Shown here one piece after another: positions 7,362-55,670 of a stretch of DNA of 64,000 nt. Origin of the DNA: an uncultured Chloroflexia bacterium. Its GTDB lineage: Bacteria; Chloroflexota; Dormibacteria; CF-121. Numbering within the stretch: position 1 is the first letter of the stretch; each line of letters opens with the position of its first letter. The stretch covers positions 138,917 through 202,916 of the forward strand of contig CAWCIV010000002.1 in assembly GCA_963795805.1 (NCBI GenBank), written 5' to 3'. The translations under genes were made by a program, and so were the position numbers. The notes beneath the pieces were generated by a model that was given only the letters and a program-made list of their open reading frames with translations, did not search any database and was not told where the DNA came from.

Positions 7362-9567
7362 TCACCCGGTCCCGACCGGCGTAAAGGCCCCCGCTCCCGG
7401 AACCAGCTCGACGATCCCGCGAAGGCCGGCCAAAAGGACCTGGCAGGACTTCAGGCTGTTGAGCAGCGGCCGCGCCGGAAGCCCATCTCGACTGGGGCTG
7501 GCCACCTGGATGACGGCGAGACACGGCGGCGCGCTCACGTCCCAATCCGGTGGGCCGCCGGCCGTGAAGATCGCCGCCGGGAGCGTCGCCGAAAAGGCGT
7601 GCCACGGACTGTCCGGCGGGATCACGGCGAGAGCGGCATCCGCCGCCTGGATGGCCCAGCTGCGCCCATCACCGAGCGGGCTGAGCCGGACGCCGGCCAG
7701 GCTGAGCGTTGGCGCGCCGCTGGTGATGGGAATGCCGGCCGCGGTGGCTTGCTGGATCACATTCCGAAGGGTCGGCGTCCACGGATCGGGATCGGCCACG
7801 ATGATCTCCGCGATTCGGAAGCGGGCCAGGATGGCGGCCGCCGCGCCCACGTGGAGACGCCGGCCACCCGTGATGATCCAGGCGCGTAGCTCGCGGGCGG
7901 TCGGCGGGAGCGCGCGGCCGATCGACTGGGCGAACTTGTCGCCGTCGGGTCCACCATCGATCAGGACCTGCTCACCTCCTCCGCTGCGGACCAGCACTGC
8001 CGATCCGGTTCCGACGTCGAGGGCATAGACATGCACGCGGCCGTCGGGGCTGATCAGCAGCAGCGCCGCGGCCAGCAGCGTTGTGATCCCGAGCACCGCC
8101 CAGACCTTGCGCTGCCAGAGGAAGATTCGCAGCCTGATGCCGGCCAGGGCGCCGCCATTGAGGATGCCGGCGGCTGCCAGCCAGCGGGCCGGGAAGTACG
8201 GCATCACGATGGCGGCGGCCGGCAGCGACCCGCAAGCCTGAATGACCCCCCGGAACCAGGCCGCCACGCCCCCGGCGAGTTGCAACGCGGGCCAGCCGGC
8301 CGGAGCGAGGATGGCGCCAAGGATGGCCCCTCCGCCACCGATCACCATCATCAAGGGCAGCAGCGGAAGCACCAGCGCGTTGGCCAGCGGGGCCACGATT
8401 GACAACTGGTGGAAGTTCGCGAGCATCAACGGCCAGGTTGCCGCCTCGGCAGCGATGGTCGCCGCAAATGGGTCCCGCAGCACCGCGGGAATCCAACCGA
8501 GGCGCGCCGCGATGCCATCGGTGAAGGTGGCGATCCCGACCGTCCCACTGAAGGACAGCAGGAAGCTCACGTCACGGGCGAGGTCGGGCTTGAGGGCGAG
8601 CATGATCGCGGCCGTCAGCGCCAGGGAAAGGTAGACGTGCGTGTCGCGCCGGAACCGGCCGGCAATCACGACCAGCGCGCCCATGGCGGCGGCCCGCAGC
8701 GCGGCGGCCGACGCGCCGGCGAGCAGGGCATAGATGACGATCACGGTGAGGGCGATGACGGGGGCGGCGCGAGGAAGAACCCGTCCGACCGAGCCGGTGA
8801 TGATGCGCGCGAGCAGCGAGACCTTGAGGCCGGAAATCACGACGATATGAATCAGCCCGCTGGCGATCATGGCCTGCTCGAGTGCCGGAGGGAGCGCAGC
8901 CCGATACCCGAAGACGACGCCGAGCAACAGGGCAGCCTGCGGTTCGGGCAAGGCGCGGTCGACCGAGCCGATCACGGCATGCCTGGCGGCGAAGAGCGCC
9001 GTGTGAAACGGGTCGCCCGAATGCGCCATGTTCCGCACCAGTCGGGCGGACGGCATGACGCCGGCGATGCCCTGTTCGGCCAGGTAGGCCCGGTAATCGA
9101 ACTGGTCGAAGCGCGGCGGCGGCTCGAGCGGCCCCGCCAGCAGCACGAGGTCCCCGTAGTGGATCGGCACGCCGCCATAGACCATCGCCTGGATACGGAG
9201 GTTTTGCGCCGCGGCGAGGGACACCCCGAGGATGCGATCGACCCGAACGCTGATCCGGGTTGCGTTGTGTCGCGGCTGCGGGTCGTCATCCACCATGCCC
9301 GCTACCGACTGCGGAGCGCTCGAAAGCCCGGGAGGCAACGCGACCGTCGGCGCCACCTGGGCACGGCCGGCGCCGAGCACGAACGCCAGCGAGGTGACGA
9401 ACACGACCAGCATCAGCGCTGGCCGCGCGACCGAGACCGCGATGGCGGCCACCAGCAGCAGCGACCGCGAGCGCCAGCATCACCGGCCTCAGCACGACGA
9501 CGGCCATGATGCCCGCGCTCCAGGCGAGCAGAAGCAGCCCGAACGTCCACCAGGGCAGCCGTCTCAC
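7362..9567 (-). pseudogene. comEC: ComEC/Rec2 DNA-internalisation competence protein, frame-interrupted near its 5' end as printed
   Basis: The 696-aa ORF (7362-9452) has the polytopic ComEC core plus a C-terminal metallo-beta-lactamase-like region (YALDVGTGSAVLV). A TM-like N-terminus MRRLPWWTFGLLLLAWSAGIMAVVVLRPVMLALAV starts at 9567 in another frame, with ATGA overlap to the comEA stop. The frames join if one base near 9462 is skipped. Confidence 0.8.
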
Positions 9568-10163
9568 GGGATGGTCAGGGATTTGGCGAGCTGTTTGTAG
9601 AGCGCGGTGTCAAGGCCCAGCCCACTCTTCAGCTCGGTCAGGGACTGGAAGCCGCCGTTCGACTGCCTGAAGCCGATGATCGCATCCGCGATATCCGGGA
9701 GCATGCCCGGGACGCCGAGCAGCTGCTCGCGGGTGGCGGTGTTGATATCGAGCTTTGCCTTCTTTGCCGCCTTCGCGCAATGGCCGGCGAACGGCACGGC
9801 AATCTGCCTGGCATCCTTGAGGTGCGCGGCCAGGTTTGGCAGGCAACTCGGATCGGCGGCGCTGGAGATGCCACCGGCGGCAACGATCGCGTCCACGACC
9901 CGAAGCCCGGATGACAGCGTATAGAGACCCGGATTCAGGACCGCGCCGTTGACGTACACGATGACGGTGCGGTCCTGCGCCGTTTCCAGGTCGCCCGCCG
10001 AAATCGCGGCCGCCGCGAGGGGGCCCGCGCTCGCGCCGCGAGGCCAGAGCAGATAGGCACCGGTCAGGACGATGCCGCCGGCAAGCAGCAGCGCCAGCAT
10101 CCAGCTATGCCGGTAGAGCCCGGCTCGCAACGCCCCGCTGGTGCGCCACCACAAATCGGTCAT
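9564..10163 (-). CDS. comEA: ComEA DNA-binding competence protein (SLBB + helix-hairpin-helix)
   Basis: N-terminal TM segment. VYVNGAVLNPGLYTL is SLBB-like. C-terminal KLDINTATREQLLGVPGMLPDIADAIIGFRQSNGGFQSLTEL is the HhH motif. Confidence 0.85.
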   Translation of the reverse strand: MTDLWWRTSGALRAGLYRHSWMLALLLAGGIVLTGAYLLWPRGASAGPLAAAAISAGDLETAQDRTVIVYVNGAVLNPGLYTLSSGLRVVDAIVAAGGISSAADPSCLPNLAAHLKDARQIAVPFAGHCAKAAKKAKLDINTATREQLLGVPGMLPDIADAIIGFRQSNGGFQSLTELKSGLGLDTALYKQLAKSLTIP

Positions 10164-10221: not shown

Positions 10222-12687
10222 CTAGGCGGTGACGAGATTGATCAGGCGATCGGCGACGAAGACGGCGTGGCTGACGGCTCGCCCTTCCAGGGCACGGGCA
10301 ACGTTGGCGCTTTGCAGCGCGCGCGCCCGGGCGTCGCTCTCGGCCGAGCCGGCCGGCAGCTCGATGCGATCCCGGAGTCGGCCATCGACCTGCACGACCA
10401 CCGTGACCATCGCGCGCTGCAGCTGCGCCGGGTCAGCCACAGGCCACGCACTGAAGGCACAGAGGGCCTCCCCGCCGAGGCGGTGCCAGAGTTCTTCGGC
10501 CAGGTGGGGCGCGAAGGGGGCCAGCAGCCGGGCGAGGTCGCGGCAGATGCCCTCCCACACCTCGTCGCGCGGGCCGCCGCCCTGGATGTAGTCCTGCATC
10601 AGGTTGGACAGCTCCATCAGCGCCGCAACGGCGGTGTTGAACCGGAACGAGTCGACGTCACGCGTGACCTTGTCGATCGTTTCGTGCAGCTTCCGAGTCA
10701 GCGCCGCCTGGGCGACCCCCGCCCCCACCGTCGCGCTGCCCTCGTCCTCCTCGCCCACCAGGAGGCGCCACACCCGGTTGAGAAAGCGCGCGACCCCATC
10801 CACGCCTCGGTCGTTCCATTCGGCGTCGAACTCGGGCGGGCCGATGAAAAGCTCGTAGACGCGGGCTGTGTCGGCGCCGTAGCGGGCGACCATGTCATCC
10901 GGGGCGATCCCGTTTCCCTTCGACTTTGCCATGACCGCGCCGTTGCGCTGGATCATTCCCTGCGAAAAGAGGGCCGCGAACGGTTCGTCGACCGAGACCA
11001 GGCCGGCGTCGAACAGGACTTTCATGAAAAACCGCGAGTAAAGCAGGTGGAGGATGGCGTGCTCGATGCCGCCGATGTACTGATCGACTGGCATCCAGAA
11101 GTCGGCCTTCGCCTTGTCGAATGGCTGCGACTGGTCGTGTGGACTCGTGTAGCGGAGGAAATACCAGGACGAGTCCACGAAGGTGTCCATGGTGTCCGTC
11201 TCGCGCCGCGCCGGCTTGCCGCAGCGCGGACAGGTGGCGTTGACGAACTCGCTGGTGTGCGCGAGCGGATTCTGGCCGTCCGACCGAAACTCGACGTTGG
11301 CGGGTAGCACGACCGGGAGCTGTTCATGCGGGACCGGAACGAGGCCATCATCCGGGCAATAGATGATGGGGATCGGGACACCCCAGTAGCGCTGGCGTGA
11401 GATCAACCAGTCGCGCAACCGGTAGGTGATCGTCCGCTTGCCGATCTGGCGTCGCTCGGCCTCGGCGATGATGGCGTCGATCGCCTCGCTGCTCCGCTGG
11501 CCGGTATAGGGTCCGGAGTCGACCATATAGCCGTCGGCCAAGCTCAGCTCCATCGGACTGGCGGGATGGCCCTGCGGCTCGGGCGTTGGGCTGACCACCT
11601 CGCGGATCGGGATCCCGAATTTCCGAGCAAATTCGAAGTCCCGGCTGTCGTTGCCAGGCACGCCCATGATGGCGCCCGTGCCGTAGGTTGCGAGGACGTA
11701 GTCGGCGACCCAGATCGGAACCCGATCGCCGTTGAAGGGGTTGACCGCAAAGGCGCCGGTGAAGACACCGGTCTTTTCATGCTCGGTCGAGAGGCGCTCG
11801 ATCTCGGTCTCGGCCTTGGTTCGCTCCAGGTAGGCGTCGACTTGCGATCGGTGCTCGTCAGTCACGACCCGCTCGGCCAGCGGGTGTTCGGGCGCGATCA
11901 CCATGAACGTGACGCCGTAGACCGTGTCGGGGCGGGTGGTGAAGACGCGCAGCGGTTCCTCGCCCTCGACCGGAAACTCCAGATCCGCGCCTTCGCTCCG
12001 GCCGATCCAGTTCGCCTGCATGACACGAACGCGGTCCGGCCAGCGGTCGAGCTTGGCGAGGTCGTCGAGCAACCGCTGGGCATATGCCGTGATCTTCAAG
12101 AACCATTGCTCGAGCTCTTTCTTCGTGGGCTTGGTGCCGCAGCGCCAACAGACGCCATTGACGATCTGTTCGTTGGCCAGCACCGTGTTGTCTTTCGGAC
12201 ACCAATTCACGGCTGCTTTGCGCTTGTAGGCGAGCCCCATCTCATAGAACTTGAGGAAGAGCCACTGGGTCCAGCGGTAGTAGTCGTCATTGCAGGTGGT
12301 GACCTCGCGATCCCAGGCGTACATCACGCCCATGATGTCGAGCTCGTGCTTCGAGATCGCGATGTTGGCTTCGGTCGAGACCCGTGGTGGGATGCCGCTC
12401 TTAATCGCTGCGTTCTCCGCCGGCAGCCCGAACGCATCCCAACCGAATGGATTCAGCACATTGAAGCCACGCATCACCTTGTAGCGGGCGATGGCATCAC
12501 CGATCACGTAATTTCGGAAGTGGCCCATATGCAACGGACCCGACGGGTAAGGAAACATGACGAGGTTGTAGAACTTCGGCTTGCCCGCATCCTCGGTAAC
12601 GCGGAAGAGCCCAGCCTGCTGCCACGCGGCACGCCACTTGGGCTCGATCAGCTGCGGATCGTAGACGGGGGCAATAGTTCTGGCCAT
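10222..12687 (-). CDS. leuS: Leucine--tRNA ligase
   Basis: Starts at [18 protein letters not shown] (ATG 12687). [12 protein letters not shown] (HIGH-type) and AKSKGNG (KMSKS-type). The 40 codons upstream in the ORF track are the translation of a tRNA gene. Confidence 0.95.
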
Positions 12688-20452: not shown

Positions 20453-20525
20453 GGGGCGATAGCTCAGCTGGCAGAGCGCTGCACTCGCATTGCAGAGGTC
20501 GAGAGTTCGAGTCTCTTTCGCTCCA
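20453..20525 (+). tRNA. tRNA-Ala (anticodon CGC), CCA not encoded
   Basis: GGGGCGA-TA-GCTC-AGCTGGCA-GAGC-G-CTGCA-CTCGCAT-TGCAG-AGGTC-GAGAG-TTCGAGT-CTCTT-TCGCTCC-A. G3:U70 is present. Confidence 0.9.
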
Positions 20526-20556
20526 CAACTTCGTGGTGACGTTCCCGCTGTCGCTC

Positions 20557-22020: not shown

Positions 22021-23593
22021 GCGCTGGGAAACGGCGCTCTCGAAAGGGAGCCAGAAACGGAACTCGCCGATCGTCACGTCCAGGCGCCGGAGCCGCGTCA
22101 ACGCGGGTCCCACCTCCCATTCCCGGCCGCCAGCCGGGAAATCCTTGCATCCCTCGACCGGGGCGCCATCTCGGCCGCCGCCTACGACACGGCGTTCGTG
22201 GCGCGGCTCCGTCACCCGGAACAGGCCGAGACCCTCGCCTACCCGAAGAGCCTCGCCTCCCTGCTGCGCGGCCAGAACCCCGATGGCAGCTTTGGGACCC
22301 GCCTCCCGATGCCCAAGGAGAAGTTGGTCTCCACCCTCAGCGCCCTGGTCGCGCTGGCCGACCTGCCAGCCTCGCTGCAGGACGGCGCCGCGCATCGCGC
22401 CCGGCTGGCCGCCCTCCGCTTCGTCTACGAAGACACCGCCAACTGGCAGACCGGCCCCGACACCGCCGGCTTCGAGTTGCTTCTGCCGGCCCTCCTCGAC
22501 GAGGCCACGTCCCGCGAGTTGCCCCTACCGTTTGAACGGTTTCGCGGCGTGATCGCCCAGCGGGATGCCAAGATCGGACACATCCCGCCCCGGCTGATCT
22601 ACACGGTCGACACGCCCCTCCTCCACAGCCTCGAATACCTCGGCAGCCGGATCGATGCGCAGGCGGCCCGCGGACGCCTCTGCCGGAACGGGTCCTTCGC
22701 GAACTCGCCCTCAGCGACCGCGTACTTCCTCCTGCACAGCAGCGACGCCAGGGCGACGGCGTACCTCGACGCGCTGATCAGCGCCCGCGGCGACGGCAGC
22801 GTGCCAACCGTCACCCCATTCGAGGTCTTCGAACGCGCCTGGGTCCTCTACAACCTCGCTCGGGCCGGCTTCATGCCGACCGACGCGGGGTCCCACGTGG
22901 CCTACCTCGCCCAGGCCCTCACCGACGACGGCGTGGGCGTCGCCAGCGAGGGGCTGCGGCCCGACTCGGACGACACCGCGCTCACGCTCAGCGTTCTGCA
23001 CCGGTACGGGTATCCGATCTCGATGGGGCCGCTGCGGCCCTTCGAAGGCATCAATTTCTTCTTCACGTTCCCCCTCGAACGTGACGCGTCTGTTACCGCC
23101 AATGCTCACGTGCTCGAAGTGCTCCGCGCCTGCGCCCCCTTCCCTCGCCAGCAGGTGATCGAGCAGAAGGTCGTGAAGTTCCTGCGCGACGCGCGGGTCG
23201 ACCAGAACCACTGGCTCGACAAATGGCACGTCTCGCCCCTCTACGCCACCGCCCATGCCACGTTCGCGCTGGCCGAAGCCGCGCCGGACGTCTGTTTGCC
23301 CGCCTACACCTGGTTCAAGAACAGCCAGCGCGACGACGGGTCGTGGGGCTGGTTCGACCAGGGGACGCCCGAGGAGACCGCCTACGCCGTCCAGGCGCTG
23401 CTCACCGCCCCGGAGTCGGTTCGGGCCGACTTCGACGCCAACTTGAGCCGGGCGGAGCAATACCTGAATGAAACGGAGGGTGAACTCGTCATCCCTATGT
23501 GGGTCGGCAAGACCCTGTACGCGCCGGATGAGGTCATTCGAGTCGGCGGTACTGTCGGCGCGGATTCTGCTGGCTCGGAGGTCGGTATGTTAG
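22021..23593 (+). CDS. Class II (protonation-dependent) terpene cyclase, labdane-type diterpene cyclase-like; start unresolved, one frame break near the 3' end
   Basis: ISAAAYDTAFVARL (upstream of the first canonical start GTG 22198). QW-like repeats QNPDGSFG, RGDGSVPT, QRDDGSWGW. DxDD is DSDD at 22963-22974. PMWVGKTLYAPDEVI then continues best in the +1 frame as ESAVLSARILLARRSVC* (stop 23591-23593). Confidence 0.7.
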
Positions 23594-24506
23594 ATCGGCG
23601 GATCGCCAAGCTCAAAGACAACCTGTTGCGGCAGGCCGACGAGGTCCGGGTCGTCCGGCACCTGGTCGACGACAATCCGCGGGGCGACGACATGCTGGGC
23701 GAGGTCTGCCGGGCCGCGGTCCTCCTGCACCCCGGGTCCACCTTCGAGCAGGCACTGACGCTGGCCCGGACGATGGCCTACATCGTCTACATCGATGACT
23801 TCCTCGAAGAGGAGCACCCGGAGTACGACCTGGGCGACTACCGCCGTGTCTGCCAGAACTTCCTGATCTGGCACAACCGCGACCTGAGCCAGATGCCGCT
23901 CGTCAACGCGACGGTGTCGCGCAAGGTCGAGGAGCAGTTCCTGGAAGATGAGGTCCCCGAAGAGTGGACGGCGATGCGCCGGCTGGTCTGGGAGAAATCG
24001 ATCTGGACGATGCTGCAGGAGAACCACTGGCTGAAACACAAGGAGCGCGTCACGCTCGACGCCTACCTCGCCAATGGCATGTACAGCAGCTCCTTCCCGA
24101 TCGTGCAGGTCAGCATCCTCGCCTTCTCCTACCAGGACGTCTCGCAGGAGCTGAAGAACCGGATCTTCGGCCACATCTGCCAGGCCTCCCGGGTGGTTCG
24201 GCTGGCCAACGACCTTCGTACGCACGAGCGCGAGGCGGCCCAGGGCCGATTCAACTCGGTCGACCTGATGCTGGCCGGCCAGCCCGACGGCACGCTCGAA
24301 TGCCGCGCGCGCCGCCGCCCGCCGCCTGATGGACGAGGAGTTCGAGATGCTGCAGAAGGCGGTCGCCAAGCGAGCGGCGCACGGGCGTCACCCAGCAGTT
24401 CCTCACCCACCTGATCGACAGCACCCAGGTGCTGCTGGACTTCTACGAAGTGCCGCGCAATCCGGCCCGGTCGGTCGGACCGGAGCCTGAAGGCGAGCTG
24501 ACCTGA
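23587..24506 (+). CDS. Class I (ionisation-dependent) terpene synthase; two frame breaks near the 3' end as printed
   Basis: GGAGG (23577-23581) plus 5 nt plus ATG 23587 (MLDRRIAKLKD). DDFLE at 23794-23808. NSE/DTE is NDLRTHERE at 24208-24234. The C-terminus is reconstructed as ...GQPDGTLE / AARAAARRLMDEEFEMLQKAVAKRA / RTGVTQQFLTHLIDSTQVLLDFYEVPRNPARSVGPEPEGELT*, with one base skipped near 24301 and one near 24377. In the ORF track it is fused to the class II gene (22198-24414). Confidence 0.7.
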
Positions 24507-24591
24507 CCATGGGCACCTCCATCAACCTCAAGCTCGTCGAAGCGCGCTGCGCCCGGCAAGCCGAACGAGCGCCGATTCCTCGGCGGTCGAG

Positions 24592-26934
24592 ATGGAGAAG
24601 CGCATCATCACGATCCGCTGGCTGGCCATCCTGCTCGCCACCGGCGCGCTGCCGTTCCTCAACCTCAAGGGCCAGACCATTCCCCTGATGGCGTTGATCG
24701 GCGTGGGCGCCGTGTACAACCTGCTCTTCCAGGTGTTCATCGTGCCGCGCAAGCCCGCCTGGCTGGAGCGCGGCTATATCTCGACCGTCGGCGACGTCCT
24801 GCTCGTGACCGGCGGCGTCGCGGTGACCACCGTGACCAACGGGCTCGAATCGCCGTTCTTCCTGGCCTATTTCGTGGTGACGGTGACCTCGGCCGTGCGC
24901 TTCGGTGGGGTTGCCGCGATCACCGCGGTCCTCACCATCATCCTGAGCTACAGCACGGTGGTCTTATGGTTCGACAGCGTCAAGGGCACCCCGCTGATCG
25001 CGGCGGACTTGACCGCCCTGGCGATGCGCACCGGGTTCGTGGCCATCACCGGCATCTTCGTCGGCTTCGTCGGTGACCGCGTTCGGCGGGCCGAGCAGGC
25101 CCTGCAGACGGAGCTCGACCGGGCGCATGCGGCGCTCTCCGAGGTCACGGTCGAACTCAACCGCGACCTGGAGTTCGAGCAAACCTGCCAGCTCACCGCC
25201 GAGAAGGGCCGGGGGCTGCTCAGCGCCGACGTGGTCCTGCTGCAGGTCCAGATGCCGTCTCTGATCGGCCAGGACGAGTCCGTCCCGCCCGCCTCCATGC
25301 TCTATATCGACTGGAGTCCCGAGCTGAAGGCCGCGCACGAAGGCACGGATATGAGCGCGGTGCGCCTCAACCTCCAGACCGCCACCACTGAGCAGGTCAT
25401 CCCCGTGCCCGACCCCAACGCGCTCGTTCCCTCGGATCACAAGCCGTTGCCCGCCGGGATGTGGGTTCGCGTGCCGGTTTTCCACGGCGCGCGCGCGATC
25501 GCCGATCTGATCTTCGGCTTCCAGGGCCGCGAGCAACCGCTACGCGAAACCGAACAGGACATCATGCTCACCTTCGCCGAACGCGCCGGCATCGCGATGC
25601 GCAACGCGCATACGCTCGACCAGGCCCAGAAGCTGTCGGTCACGGACTCGGTCACCGGGCTGCCGAACCACCGCTACTTTCACACCCGCTTCGACGAGGA
25701 GCTGGAGCGAACGCGCGACGCCGGTGGCTCGATCACCGTGATGATGATCGACCTCGACCGCTTCAAGGTCTACAACGACAGCTTCGGCCACGCCGCGGGC
25801 GACGTCGCGCTGAAGGCGGCCGCCCGCACGATCTCCTCGACGATGCGCCGAGAGGACACGGTCACCCGGTACGGCGGCGAGGAGTTCGTTGCGATCCTGC
25901 CCGGCGTCGACATCCAGACCGCCCCCATCCGAGCGCAGGAGATCTGCGACACCCTGGCCAAGGTGTTCATGTACAACCCCAAAACCATCTTTGCCCCGCT
26001 GACCGCCTCGGTCGGTTGGGCGACTTACCCGGTCGATGCCAAGAACCGCGACGAGCTGCTGAACCGCGCCGACCTGGCCATGTACATGGCCAAGAAGCGC
26101 GGGCGCAACTGCATCTGCGGCGCCTGCGAACTGGAGAGCGTCGCCGCGCTCGACTCCGTGCTCAGCGAGGTCGTCGCCCAGCTGGCCAGCGCCGACACGG
26201 TCGGCCCCGGCATGGTCGCCAACCTCGAGAAGCGCCTTGGCCAAATCGCCAACTCCAGCCATCTCGAGGAGCTGGCCGAGGGCATGCTCTCCCCCAACAG
26301 CGAGTCGACGCTGGAGGCGCTCAACGCGCTGGCGGCCTCGATCGACGCCAAGGACCCGTACACCAGCGGCCACTCCCAGTCGGTCGCCAAGCTCGCCGAA
26401 GACCTGGGCGACATGCTGCAACTCTCCGCGGCCCACAAGAACCAGCTTCGCCTCGCCGCCATCCTCCACGACGTGGGCAAGATCGGTGTGGTCGACAAGG
26501 TGCTGCTCAAGGAAGGCAAGCTGGATGAGGACGAGAAGCTGATCATGCGCATGCACCCCATCCTGGGCGCACGCATCCTGCAGCCGATCAAGGCCTTCCG
26601 CCAGATTCTCAACGTCGTCCTGCATCACCACGAGTGGTACGACGGGAGCGGCTATCCCGACGGCCTCGCGGGCCAGAACATCCCCCTGCACGCGCGCATC
26701 GTCTCCGTCTGCGATGCGTATCACGCCATGACCTCGACCCGACCCTATCGCCAGCGGCGCACGCCGGAGTTCGCGATGGCCCAACTCGAGGCCGGGAAAG
26801 GCACCCAGTTCGACCCCATCATCGTGGACTACTTCGTCCAGATGATGCGTCGGCGCGAGGCTGACCATCCGGGCATCCTCGAAGAGGAAGGCCACCAGCA
26901 GGACCACGGCCCGGACGCCGCGGCAGCGGGCTGA
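24592..26934 (+). CDS. Membrane sensor protein with GAF-like, GGDEF (diguanylate cyclase) and HD-GYP (c-di-GMP phosphodiesterase) domains
   Basis: 780 aa with about 6 N-terminal TM segments. I-site RRED followed by RYGGEEFVAILPG. HD-GYP region has HSQSVAKLAEDLG, HDVGKIGV and HHHEWYDGSGYPDGL. Confidence 0.85.
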   Translation: MEKRIITIRWLAILLATGALPFLNLKGQTIPLMALIGVGAVYNLLFQVFIVPRKPAWLERGYISTVGDVLLVTGGVAVTTVTNGLESPFFLAYFVVTVTSAVRFGGVAAITAVLTIILSYSTVVLWFDSVKGTPLIAADLTALAMRTGFVAITGIFVGFVGDRVRRAEQALQTELDRAHAALSEVTVELNRDLEFEQTCQLTAEKGRGLLSADVVLLQVQMPSLIGQDESVPPASMLYIDWSPELKAAHEGTDMSAVRLNLQTATTEQVIPVPDPNALVPSDHKPLPAGMWVRVPVFHGARAIADLIFGFQGREQPLRETEQDIMLTFAERAGIAMRNAHTLDQAQKLSVTDSVTGLPNHRYFHTRFDEELERTRDAGGSITVMMIDLDRFKVYNDSFGHAAGDVALKAAARTISSTMRREDTVTRYGGEEFVAILPGVDIQTAPIRAQEICDTLAKVFMYNPKTIFAPLTASVGWATYPVDAKNRDELLNRADLAMYMAKKRGRNCICGACELESVAALDSVLSEVVAQLASADTVGPGMVANLEKRLGQIANSSHLEELAEGMLSPNSESTLEALNALAASIDAKDPYTSGHSQSVAKLAEDLGDMLQLSAAHKNQLRLAAILHDVGKIGVVDKVLLKEGKLDEDEKLIMRMHPILGARILQPIKAFRQILNVVLHHHEWYDGSGYPDGLAGQNIPLHARIVSVCDAYHAMTSTRPYRQRRTPEFAMAQLEAGKGTQFDPIIVDYFVQMMRRREADHPGILEEEGHQQDHGPDAAAAG

Positions 26935-26948
26935 GGGCGCCCGCGCCC

Positions 26949-27998
26949 ATGGCCCTCGACGCCAACGGTCACCCCCTTTCGCGGATCTCGGAGCGGAAGC
27001 TTCAGCACCTGCGCCTCTCGCTCGAGGCATCGGTCCAGTCGACCCGCGGCGCCGGCTTCGACCGACTGGCCTTCACCCATCAAGCCCTCCCCGACCTCGA
27101 CCTCGACGCCATCGACCTGCGCGCTAGCTTTCTCGGTCACCCGCTGCATCTCCCGTTCCTGATCTCCAGCATGACCGGCGGCGCCCACGCGGCAGGCGAC
27201 ATCAACCGGCGACTCGCGCTGGTCGCACAGGCGATGGGGATCGCGTTCGGCGTTGGCTCTCAGCGCGCGGGCATCACGCACAAGGACCTCCGCTCGACCT
27301 ACCAGGTGCGCAGCGTGGCACCGGATGTGCTCCTCTTCGCCAACCTTGGCGCGGTGCAGCTGAACTACGGCATGCGCAAGGAGCAGTGCCTCGAGGCGAT
27401 CGAGATGATCGGCGCCGATGCGCTCATCCTCCACCTGAATCCGCTCCAGGAGGCCCTCCAACCAGAGGGCGATCATAACTTCCGCGGCCTGCTGGAGAAG
27501 ATTGCCGAGCTCTGCACGGAGCTCCCGGTCCCGGTGATCGTCAAAGAAGTTGGTTGCGGAATTTCGGGTGAGACCGCGAGGCTGCTGGCCGACGCCGGCG
27601 TGGCCGCCATCGACGTCGCCGGGATGGGCGGGACGAGCTTCGCCCGTGTCGAGGCGATGCGCCGAGAGCGGCCCGAGGAGGTCGAGCTGGCGCTCGCCTT
27701 TGCCGAGTGGGGCATCCCAACCTGCGATGCCATCCGCGCCGTCCGCCAGGCGGCGCCGGCCACGCCCGTGATTGCGAGCGGTGGCCTGCGACACGGTCTC
27801 GATGCGGCCAAAGCGGTCGCGCTTGGCGCCGAGCTCACCGGCTTCGCCCACGTGGTTCTTGCCGCCGCCACCGAGAGCGAGGCGGCCGTTCGGCTGGTGC
27901 TGGACGGCTTTGCCTGGCAACTTCGGGTTGCGATGTTCTGCGCCGGGGCGCAGGATCTCGCCGCCCTCCGCGCTGTGGCCCTGCACGAGGTCCGATGA
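26949..27998 (+). CDS. fni: Type 2 isopentenyl-diphosphate delta-isomerase (FMN-dependent)
   Basis: 349 aa. ISERKLQHL, FLISSMTGG, VKEVGCGIS, AIDVAGMGGTSFA and IASGGLR. Confidence 0.85.
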   Translation: MALDANGHPLSRISERKLQHLRLSLEASVQSTRGAGFDRLAFTHQALPDLDLDAIDLRASFLGHPLHLPFLISSMTGGAHAAGDINRRLALVAQAMGIAFGVGSQRAGITHKDLRSTYQVRSVAPDVLLFANLGAVQLNYGMRKEQCLEAIEMIGADALILHLNPLQEALQPEGDHNFRGLLEKIAELCTELPVPVIVKEVGCGISGETARLLADAGVAAIDVAGMGGTSFARVEAMRRERPEEVELALAFAEWGIPTCDAIRAVRQAAPATPVIASGGLRHGLDAAKAVALGAELTGFAHVVLAAATESEAAVRLVLDGFAWQLRVAMFCAGAQDLAALRAVALHEVR

Positions 27999-29038
27999 CC
28001 AAGACCAAAGTCTTCGCCAACCGAACCGATCGCCTCCAGGCGATGAACGATGCACTCGACCGCGAGCTGGGCCGCCTCTCCCAACAGGCGGGATCGAGTC
28101 AGAGTGCGCTGCTGACGGAGATGGTCCAGTATCACCTGGGGCTGCGCCGGACCGGCCACCGGCCGGGAAAGCGGCTGCGGGCCAACATCGCGCTGCTGAC
28201 CTGCGAGGCGTTTGGGCGGCGCTACGCGGAGGCGCTCTGGGCCGGGGTCGCGGTCGAGCTGGTGCACAACTTCTCCCTCGTGCTCGACGATGTCCAGGAC
28301 GGCGACGAGTTGCGTCGCGGGCGCCCCGCGGTCTGGAAGGTCTGGGGAACCGGCCAGGCGATCAATGCCGGGGCGGCGCTGGAGGCCCTCGTGACGCGGT
28401 CGGTGGTCGACCTGCTGCCGGCGCGGCACGCCGATCGAACTCGGCCTGCGCTGTCGCTGCTCTCCGAGGCGATGCTCGCCCTTTGCCGCGGCCAGGTGCT
28501 TGATCTCCAGTTCGAGCAGCGCATCGACGTCTCCGTCGACGAGTACCTGGAGATGATCTCTCTCAAGACCGGCGCGCTGTTCGAGTGCGCGGCGCGCCTT
28601 GGCGGGGTTGCCGCCGGCGCGGGCGAGGCGAGCCTCGATCGGGCGGGACATTTCGGTCACCACCTCGGCCTGGCCTTTCAGGTGATCGACGACATCCTCG
28701 GTGTCTTCGGCTCGACCCAACAGACCGGTAAGCGCGTCGGGAGCGACCTGAAGAATGGGAAGAAGACGCTGCCCACCCTGCATGCCCTGCGCAACGGCCC
28801 GGCCGGTAACCGTCGGGTGCTCCGCTCCCTGCTGACGCGTGCCAGGTTCAGCGCCGAGGAGCTGGAGACCGCCCGCGCCATCATCGCCCAGTCCGGGGCG
28901 CAGCAGGTTTGCCGCCGGCAGGCGTCCGAACACCTGGCCGAGGCCCGCCTCCACCTGTTCTCCATGACCGAGCGGCCCAACTGGGCAGTCCGGGCGCTCG
29001 CCGACATGGTGACGACGCTCGAATCGGCCCTCGGCTAA
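27995..29038 (+). CDS. Short-chain polyprenyl diphosphate synthase (GGPP synthase-like)
   Basis: Starts MTKTKVFANRTDRL, with ATGA overlap to the fni stop. First Asp-rich motif LVLDDVQDGDELRRGRP, with Phe at position -5. Second motif FQVIDDILG. Confidence 0.8.
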   Translation: MTKTKVFANRTDRLQAMNDALDRELGRLSQQAGSSQSALLTEMVQYHLGLRRTGHRPGKRLRANIALLTCEAFGRRYAEALWAGVAVELVHNFSLVLDDVQDGDELRRGRPAVWKVWGTGQAINAGAALEALVTRSVVDLLPARHADRTRPALSLLSEAMLALCRGQVLDLQFEQRIDVSVDEYLEMISLKTGALFECAARLGGVAAGAGEASLDRAGHFGHHLGLAFQVIDDILGVFGSTQQTGKRVGSDLKNGKKTLPTLHALRNGPAGNRRVLRSLLTRARFSAEELETARAIIAQSGAQQVCRRQASEHLAEARLHLFSMTERPNWAVRALADMVTTLESALG

Positions 29039-53828: not shown

Positions 53829-54741
53829 TCAGCCCTGCGGGGCGACCTTGACCATGGCCATGAACTCGAAGATAAACTTCAGCGCCGCCAGGCTCGTCAC
53901 GTCCCCGAGGTCGAGCGGGGGGGCAACCTCGTCAACATCGAGGCCTGCCAGGGGCACGCCCTCGAGTTGATAGAAGAAAGTCGAGCAGCTGGCGGGAGGT
54001 CAGCCCACCGGCCGAGGGAATGCCCGTCCCCGGGGCGTAGGCAGGATCCAGCGAGTCGATGTCGAGGGAGATGTGGAGGGCATCGGAGCCGATGGTCTCG
54101 CGAATCCGGTCGCGCAGGGCGCCGTCGCCCAGCCGATGCGCGTCCGCACTCGTCACGAGCATGATTCCCATCCGCTTGATGTATTCGACCTCCTCCCAGT
54201 CATAGTCGCGGCAACCCAGGAGCGTCACCTTTCGTGGATCGATCTCGCCCATCTCGAGGCCACGCCGCAGCGCACAGCCGTTGGACCAGCGCGAGTGTCG
54301 CGAGGTGTCGTTGAGATCCGGGTGGGCATCGATATAGAGGATGCTCAGCCGGCCGTTGTGCCGGCGCTGCTGCGCGATCAGGGTCGGACTGACCGTCGTG
54401 TGATCCCCTCCGAGCACGATCGGCAGCGTGCCGGTGGGGGTCTCACCGATGGCGGCGGCAACCATCGCGACATTGACCCCCATATCGCCCGGCTCGAGGG
54501 ACAGGTCGCCGTCGTCCAGGACCGTGACCTGATCGAAAAGCCGGGCCCGCTCGCTGACCGGCGCCAGCACGGCGGACAGCCGGCGGAGGTGCGACGGCGC
54601 CACCGCCTGCCCGGGGCGGTAGGTCGAACCGGCCTCGATCGGAACGCCGAGGATCCTGAAGTCCGCCGCGACGCCGGGCGCCGGTCGTTTGAGGCCGCCC
54701 CAGGGCGAAAGCCCTTCGGTGTTGAAGAGGCGCGTGGTCAT
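53829..54741 (-). pseudogene. Arginase-family ureohydrolase (agmatinase/guanidino-acid hydrolase-like), one frame break as printed
   Basis: Starts MTTRLFNTEGL (ATG 54741, ATGA overlap with the upstream gene). GGDHTT, IDAHPDLND and SLDIDSLDP metal ligands. After ...SRQLLDF it continues in the +1 frame as FYQLEGVPLAGLDVDEVAPPLDLGDVTSLAALKFIFEFMAMVKVAPQG*, skipping one base near 53976-53979. Confidence 0.75.
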
Positions 54742-55670
54742 GCCGCCAAAAACGCGCTGATCGCCTCGACCTGGGCGGCGATCAGGGCCGGCGTCCATCC
54801 ATGTCCGGCGGCGGGAATGACGCGGATCTCGGCCTGGGGCATCAGCGACGCGAGGGTGCGGATCGCCTCGACGTCGACCGTGCGATCGTCGGCCGCGACC
54901 ACGACCAGCACCGGCTTTCGCCAGCTCGACAGAAACGGTCGGTAGTCGCGCCCGATCCCGTCGCGGAGCCACTGCCGGGCGGCCCGCCCATCGGCGCGCT
55001 GTTGATTCTGAAAGTTCACCTGGGCGTCGTAGGGGTCAACCCCGGGCCCTTCGACCACGAACCGTTTGTAGAGGTCGGAGACCAGACGGTTGCGCCGGAG
55101 GCGGTCGACGCCGAAGAAGATCGGCCCCGAGGTCAGGATCGTCACCTGACGTTTGAAGGCCGACCGCAGCGTGGTCGGCGAGTAGATCGGCGTGTGCAGG
55201 ACCAGTCGGGTGATCCGATCAGGGAAACGTGAGGCATACTCCAACGCCACGGTCGCTCCGAGGCAGATGCCACCGACGTCATGGTTCTCGATTCCGAGCC
55301 GCTCGACGAAGGCGTGCAGAAACTCGGCATGCCCGGCAACGGTGTGCGGCGGGTCGCCGGCCGCTGTTTCGCCACACCCGGGCAGATCCGGGATCAGGAT
55401 GCGGCGGTGACCGGCGAAGGCCGGCGCCCAGGTGTGGAAATTCTCGAGCGAGCCGATGAAACCGTGACACAGCAGCAACGGATGCCCGGTCCCCTGGTCG
55501 AGGTACCGGACTCGCCGCTGCGCAATGTCGATGACGCGAATCGCGCTGGATGGAATTTCGACGGATCTATTCCCCGGTGTCGATCTGGGCCCGCTGCAGC
55601 CGGCCACTGTAGTCGACATAGATCGTCTTCCACTCGGTGAACTCATCGAGCGCCACGGTTCCAGCCTCAC
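54738..55670 (-). CDS. Alpha/beta-fold hydrolase with Cys in the nucleophile elbow
   Basis: LLLCHGFIGS, elbow VGGICLGATVA (G-x-C-x-G) and C-terminal AAGHGW. The start is uncertain: all Met candidates (55670, 55646, 55619) overlap the upstream ALDH gene. Confidence 0.65.
   Translation of the reverse strand: MRLEPWRSMSSPSGRRSMSTTVAGCSGPRSTPGNRSVEIPSSAIRVIDIAQRRVRYLDQGTGHPLLLCHGFIGSLENFHTWAPAFAGHRRILIPDLPGCGETAAGDPPHTVAGHAEFLHAFVERLGIENHDVGGICLGATVALEYASRFPDRITRLVLHTPIYSPTTLRSAFKRQVTILTSGPIFFGVDRLRRNRLVSDLYKRFVVEGPGVDPYDAQVNFQNQQRADGRAARQWLRDGIGRDYRPFLSSWRKPVLVVVAADDRTVDVEAIRTLASLMPQAEIRVIPAAGHGWTPALIAAQVEAISAFLAA

Follow-up and report, generated by a model that had tools for sequence, protein, structure and literature searches.

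A terpene synthase locus printed as one reading frame

The window, the whole 64,000-nucleotide stretch of DNA analyzed here, carries on its plus strand a terpene locus in which a single ORF appears to join two enzymes. Translation of the three forward frames gave one ORF in frame 1 that runs from a GTG start at 22198 to a stop codon at 24412–24414 and encodes 738 aa, as a sequence-only reading of this DNA had reported. By Pfam, a squalene-hopene-type cyclase domain lies toward the N-terminus of the product and a terpene synthase metal-binding domain toward its C-terminus. The same reading had pointed out that the ORF hinges on one nucleotide and had set a class II–class I fusion against two overlapping genes. 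The features of the locus and of the genes that follow it are listed below.

22087–23593, plus strand: class II (type B, βγ) diterpene cyclase, read without A23541; assigned by Pfam SQHop_cyclase_C, homologues and the match to 6VPT
23541, plus strand: surplus A that merges two reading frames and makes the apparent fusion ORF; without counterpart in the syntenic relatives L001–L005
23543–23593, plus strand: C-terminal segment of the class II protein, SAVLSARILLARRSVC followed by a stop, in the +1 frame relative to the printed ORF
23577–23581, plus strand: GGAGG, predicted ribosome-binding site of the class I gene, inside the class II 3′ end; conserved in L001–L007
23587–24501, plus strand: class I (α-domain) terpene synthase, 303 aa when read without bases 24300, 24369 and 24461, with TGA at 24499–24501; assigned by Pfam and the orthologue
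24300, plus strand: surplus base in the class I gene that sends the printed ORF into the stop at 24412–24414; absent in L001 and the outgroup
24369, plus strand: surplus base in the class I gene, from the alignment to L001; absent in the outgroup too
24461, plus strand: surplus base in the class I gene, from the alignment to L001; absent in the outgroup too
24509–26934, plus strand: GGDEF and HD-domain protein (Pfam GGDEF and HD_5), next in the operon; first 27 codons thrown out of frame by the surplus bases 24535 and 24566
26949–27998, plus strand: probable type 2 (FMN-dependent) isopentenyl-diphosphate isomerase, from Pfam FMN_dh only and synteny
27995–29038, plus strand: polyprenyl (geranylgeranyl) diphosphate synthase (Pfam polyprenyl_synt; orthologues of 347 aa)

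At the junction, frame 1 reads ...LYAPDEVI (23515–23538), then RVGGTVGADSAGSEVG, then MLDRRIAKL..., so that ...EVIRVGGTVGADSAGSEVGMLDRR... is the printed peptide across it. From 23543, the +1 frame encodes SAVLSARILLARRSVC and ends at a TAG stop at 23591–23593. The GGAGG at 23577–23581 has a spacing of 5 nt to the ATG at 23587–23589, and the class I start at 23587 overlaps the class II TAG ending at 23593 by 7 nt (ATGTTAG). The sequence-only reading had given the +1-frame stretch after ...LYAPDEVI with its stop, the GGAGG before the ATG and the overlap of start and stop, and all of these were recovered at the positions it named. Two of its points stood in part. The higher G/C at third codon positions (GC3) that it saw in the +1 frame is in the direction claimed (11/16, versus 9/16 in frame 1) but lacks the strength claimed, the difference being not significant standing alone (Fisher p = 0.72). 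One base is indeed surplus, but it is the A at 23541 and not a base near 23539: the codon before the frame switch is Arg (CGG without A23541), and the class II C-terminus is ...EVIRSAVLSARILLARRSVC, not ...EVI-ESAVL.

The class II and class I genes

Read without A23541, the upstream gene encodes a βγ didomain of the SQHop_cyclase_C type together with the acid motif DxDD of class II cyclases, here DSDD within 22960–22980 (PDSDDTA), in which D277, D279 and D280 are invariant in the homologue alignment. The protein is 93% identical to P0001 and 90% identical to P0002, both from Candidatus Dormibacteraeota assemblies; homologues carry the label ‘halimadienyl-diphosphate synthase’ from automatic JGI annotation. 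The best PDB match was 6VPT (E = 2.4e-60, 208 bits), the halimadienyl-diphosphate synthase Rv3377c of M. tuberculosis, followed by 5BP8 (E = 8.8e-42), a Streptomyces ent-copalyl diphosphate synthase. The match to 6VPT reaches query residue 478, within the +1-frame segment.

The C-terminal comparison that the sequence-only reading had proposed was carried out with orthologous class II cyclases. Their C-termini run ...LYAPDEVI(R/H/W/E/D/A)SAVLSARILLARRAAC, matching the +1 frame and not the printed linker. The +1-frame segment shares 14/16 residues with the C-terminus of P0001 (SAVLSARILLARRAAC), and the 14 closest and most diverse homologues end in ...SAVLSA(R/Q)I.L.R.... Both A475 and A471 lie in the +1-frame segment; among 26 aligned homologues, the most distant at 38% identity, the former is invariant and the latter nearly so.

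The 5′ end of the class II gene is an observation in its own right. Conserved coding sequence begins at about 22087, the first canonical start is GTG 22198, and no in-frame ATG, GTG or TTG is present between the upstream stop (at about 21966) and this GTG. The approximately 37 codons before GTG 22198 (PEPRQRGSHLPFPAASREILASLDRGAISAAAYDTAF) are conserved in homologues whose start lies there. Because L001 and L002 are equally without an upstream start, its absence is not an error of the window; in this subclade, either a non-canonical start is used or a shorter protein is made.

The downstream gene encodes a class I metal-binding domain (Terpene_syn_C_2, E = 6.7e-14; Terpene_synth_C, E = 1.1e-11) that carries both motifs of its class, a DDxxD/E motif in the form DDxxE (DDFLE, within 23788–23814) and a (N/D)Dxx(S/T)xxxE motif in the form NDxxTxxxE (NDLRTHERE, within 24202–24234). 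No solved structure is close to the protein (best PDB E = 3e-7), and it matched none of the NCBIfam models. As judged by a GC3 plot, the coding frame is frame 1 up to about 24300, then frame 2 up to about 24370 and frame 0 after that. The stop at 24414 is an artifact, since it is out of frame after the insertion at 24300, and as printed the α-domain is without its last ~66 residues, out-of-frame sequence standing in their place. The ORF end that the sequence-only reading gave is therefore correct as a printed coordinate, but the frameshift at 24300 that produces this end had been overlooked. Removal of bases 23541, 24300, 24369 and 24461 yielded a class II protein that ends ...EVIRSAVLSARILLARRSVC at its stop codon and a class I protein whose length is exactly 303 aa, which agrees with its L001 orthologue at 297/303 positions (98% identity) and is closed by the same TGA stop.

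Homologues and syntenic loci

The whole printed product, with its C-terminus repaired, was searched against ~5.8 billion proteins, which returned 1135 matches. The best 120, which were inspected, are all class II only, 441–554 aa in length and covering 33–61% of the query; no fused homologue was found among these best 120 of 1135 matches, although a fused relative would score highest. A genome scan with one genome per species (185,579 species) gave 80 loci, the nearest at 85% identity, and with five syntenic loci added, 23 loci carried both genes. In none of these 23 Dormibacterota-type loci do the two genes share a frame; stop and start overlap by 4, 7, 8, 11 or 20 nt, so a pair of presumably coupled genes is the conserved arrangement of the whole clade. 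Fusion of class II and class I in one frame was seen in 0/23 loci carrying both genes. The two genes that the sequence-only reading had argued for are thus borne out by orthologous loci with the same ATGTTAG and GGAGG, and fused orthologues, which it had named as counting against two genes, were absent from the best 120 homologues and from the 23 loci alike.

The five syntenic relatives (L001–L005) encode a separate class II protein of 464–499 aa and a class I protein of 303 aa with a 7-nt overlap (ATGTTAG or GTGTTAG). Their junction DNA reads ...CGGAGGGCGGC(A/G)TGTTAGATCG..., in which GGAGG, start and TAG are all kept; across L001–L007 the overlap layout is identical and GGAGG is kept. A class I start inside the class II end, a ribosome-binding site preceding it and the conservation of this arrangement mark the genes as a predicted translationally coupled pair.

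A23541 is absent in L001 and L002 (93% DNA identity) and in L003, L004 and L005 (80%). In the junction alignment, the window reads GTCATTCG[A]GTCGGCGG and the relatives read GTCATTCG-GTCGGCGG and GTCATTTG-GTCGGCGG, so that the window is longer by exactly one base than each of the five. This base lies outside any homopolymer (cgAgt). Two exact-pattern scans of metagenome contigs found no copy of the window’s allele, with or without A23541.

Synteny between the window and the contigs that encode P0001 and P0004 covers the stretch from HIT and thiolase to Obg. The shared gene order is HIT, thiolase, Lon, FtsH, MFS, class II, class I and GGDEF-HD, and it continues with the FMN-dependent isomerase, polyprenyl synthase, GDSL lipase, PucR, RsfS, NadD and Obg. 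Between FtsH and MFS, the window has a tRNA-Ala(CGC) gene (20453–20526, plus strand) that is 98% identical to the copy at 8373–8468 of L003 and opposite to it in orientation, pointing to a small inversion or relocation at this site. An EamA gene lies near this tRNA gene in L003; the window is without EamA there.

One-base insertions across the window

Positions 12194–33605 of the window (21.4 kb) were aligned to L001 at 92.9% identity, and one-base differences in length were counted within genes that are intact in L001. Relative to L001, the genes of the window contain 15 one-base insertions and 0 one-base deletions (binomial p = 6e-5), and its intergenic DNA contains 7 insertions and 7 deletions (coding versus intergenic, Fisher p = 0.002). 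The insertions are specific to the window, because nearly all are also absent in the 80% outgroup (L003 and L004). Those outside the synthase pair are listed here with two further split genes.

13793: insertion in a hypothetical gene, from the alignment to L001
16843: insertion in Lon that splits the gene; orthologues intact, 798 aa
24535 and 24566: insertions in the GGDEF-HD gene, from the alignment to L001
29393, 29517, 29574, 29583 and 29798: insertions in the GDSL lipase gene, from the alignment to L001
30351 and 30391: insertions in the PucR-type regulator gene, from the alignment to L001
41052–43649, minus strand: valyl-tRNA synthetase gene, split over three frames; tRNA-synt_1 at residues 17–562 of the joined pieces
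53834–54745: arginase-family gene, split over two frames; Arginase at residues 28–294 of the joined pieces

Once their pieces are joined, the valyl-tRNA synthetase and the arginase-family protein each show one Pfam stretch across the junctions, and the three frame steps in these two genes go in the same direction as the Lon insertion. When the whole window was segmented into frames by a three-periodic HMM, the changes in the class I gene (24300 and 24370) came out again, as did those of the arginase-family, Lon and valyl-tRNA synthetase genes. This model does not resolve the shifted 52-nt stretch at 23541–23593 and by itself does not separate a true gene junction from a frameshift. Six other candidates of the segmentation (a, d, e, g, i and j), judged by translations alone, look like ordinary adjacent genes and were left uncounted as frameshifts. 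In the gene for a ComEC-like membrane protein, the HMM placed 107 nt (9462–9568, minus strand) in a frame other than that of the flanks, which may reflect another indel pair or model noise.

The inserted bases comprise seven A, six C, two T and no G, and an identical base adjoins in only 4/15. Being mostly outside homopolymers, they are not what the commonest error model, the homopolymer type, would give. Residual insertion errors are the simplest reading, because a doubly frameshifted valyl-tRNA synthetase would not be survivable and natural indels would include deletions. The sequence-only reading had left error and mutation as alternatives for the surplus base; the 15 insertions against no deletion, along with the broken Lon and valyl-tRNA synthetase genes, strongly favor error. 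From this imbalance, and because the lesions are too many for an organism, we infer that A23541 belongs to the same error class.

Predicted operon and pathway

The locus is proposed to hold two separate, translationally coupled genes within one diterpene operon. The class II cyclase would end at TAG 23591–23593, and the 303-aa class I synthase would start at ATG 23587, probably served by GGAGG 23577–23581. A23541 would be one of many insertion errors, those at 24300, 24369 and 24461 presumably scrambling the class I end and creating the stop at 24414. Judging from the enzyme families, the cyclase may protonate geranylgeranyl diphosphate to a bicyclic diphosphate of the halimadienyl or copalyl type, which the class I enzyme would ionize to give a diterpene. 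The substrate would be supplied by the downstream isomerase and prenyl-diphosphate synthase genes. The first of these (26949–27998) is a probable isopentenyl-diphosphate isomerase from its place in the operon, and the polyprenyl synthase gene overlaps it by ATGA (27995–27998).

The GGDEF-HD gene, of the cyclic-di-GMP turnover type, follows the terpene synthase pair and precedes the isomerase and prenyl synthase genes, and such a gene is an unusual member of a diterpene operon. The GGDEF-HD gene has this placement in every Dormibacterota-type locus with long enough flanks (L001, 12309–14732; L003, 12408–14825). Its orthologues are 805–807 aa, versus 780 aa for the printed ORF.

Alternative readings of the junction

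From the sequence comparisons, we give a probability of about 0.92 that an error of sequencing or assembly produced the apparent terpene synthase fusion and that two genes lie underneath. A real A23541 in the organism’s own DNA appears unlikely. As a real and recent mutation, it would cost the class II protein its last helix and carry translation into class I, giving rise to a newly formed fusion or, more probably, a pseudogene in decay, and we regard this history as improbable. The base does stand in the printed sequence, with frame 1 open through the junction, and the terpene operon is rich in frameshifts (six in 23541–24566), as a decaying accessory cluster might be; genuine γβα fusions are also known from bacteria (PMC11469919). 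However, insertions of the same kind occur in Lon, valyl-tRNA synthetase, the arginase-family gene, the PucR-type regulator and the GDSL lipase, so the pattern is not limited to the terpene cluster but extends to housekeeping and other genes. The presence of insertions only, with 0 deletions, is unlike natural indels, and apart from the indels both genes are well preserved (protein identity of 93% for class II and 98% for class I). It is very unlikely that A23541 is real, and the window’s other frameshifts errors, in which case a Dormibacterota strain would carry a very young read-through fusion.

Two further accounts would take the printed DNA at face value, and we consider each to be barely credible. 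If the ORF encoded a working bifunctional class II/class I enzyme of the plant, fungal or CseDCS kind, the order of γβ and then α domains and the presence of DxDD, DDxxE and NSE-type motifs in one printed frame would be as expected. Such an enzyme would have to function with RVGGTVGADSAGSEVG in place of the conserved cyclase C-terminal segment that holds A471 and A475, and without the ~66 terminal α-domain residues lost after 24300; moreover, neither the best 120 of 1135 matches nor the 23 loci include a fused homologue. Under programmed ribosomal frameshifting or transcriptional slippage, the DNA would be correct and the proteins would still be made, with recoding required in many genes; beyond their number nothing speaks for this account. 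The 15 sites have no slippery motif or homopolymer in common, for which reason programmed frameshifting was rejected, and in relatives at 93% identity the same proteins are encoded with no frame change. The reading that we retain is the two-gene one, with A23541 as an insertion error.

Comparison with known systems

Among bacteria, γβα fusions are rare: a survey of 15,498 species gave five candidates, of which three were demonstrated to be bifunctional (PMC11469919). Such tridomain bifunctional diterpene cyclase/synthases include ChjDCS, StrDCS and CseDCS (Chen et al. 2024, PMC11469919). In domain order and motifs, the printed ORF agrees with these enzymes and with the γβα synthases of plants and fungi. 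Unlike in ChjDCS, StrDCS and CseDCS, its single frame hangs on one surplus base that is absent in relatives, its junction destroys the cyclase C-terminus and frameshifts truncate its α-domain. There is no genuine single frame, no relative shares the fusion and the α-domain is not intact; the printed ORF is outside the bifunctional γβα group, and the fusion is not a real feature.

Bacterial γβα fusions are relevant to how plant terpene synthases arose. Because real ones are rare and have this relevance, a false fusion in a database or a genome-mining study would mislead, and the fusion should not be annotated. Were A23541 true, the locus would capture the type of event from which the plant terpene synthase family is believed to have arisen.

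In the frequency of one-base insertions in conserved and essential genes, and in the absence of the opposite sign, the window resembles uncorrected or low-coverage assemblies with residual insertion errors. It differs from the usual case in that the inserted bases are mostly outside homopolymers. The compared stretch is best regarded as carrying ~0.7 one-base insertion errors per kb, and other ORF oddities in the window, be they fusions or truncated or split genes, need the same check.

Rv3377c is the nearest solved relative of the class II protein. The class II protein is only moderately similar to 6VPT, and its partner here is a canonical Terpene_syn_C_2 protein; the fold of Rv3378c differs from the Terpene_syn_C_2 type. 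The arrangement resembles the separate class II/class I pairs of bacteria, in which a βγ cyclase of ~500 aa with DxDD is followed by a separate α synthase of ~300 aa. As in bacterial diterpene pairs, the class I protein has DDxxD/E and NSE-type motifs and a prenyl-diphosphate synthase is encoded in the same operon. Beneath the errors lies an ordinary, conserved Dormibacterota diterpene operon.
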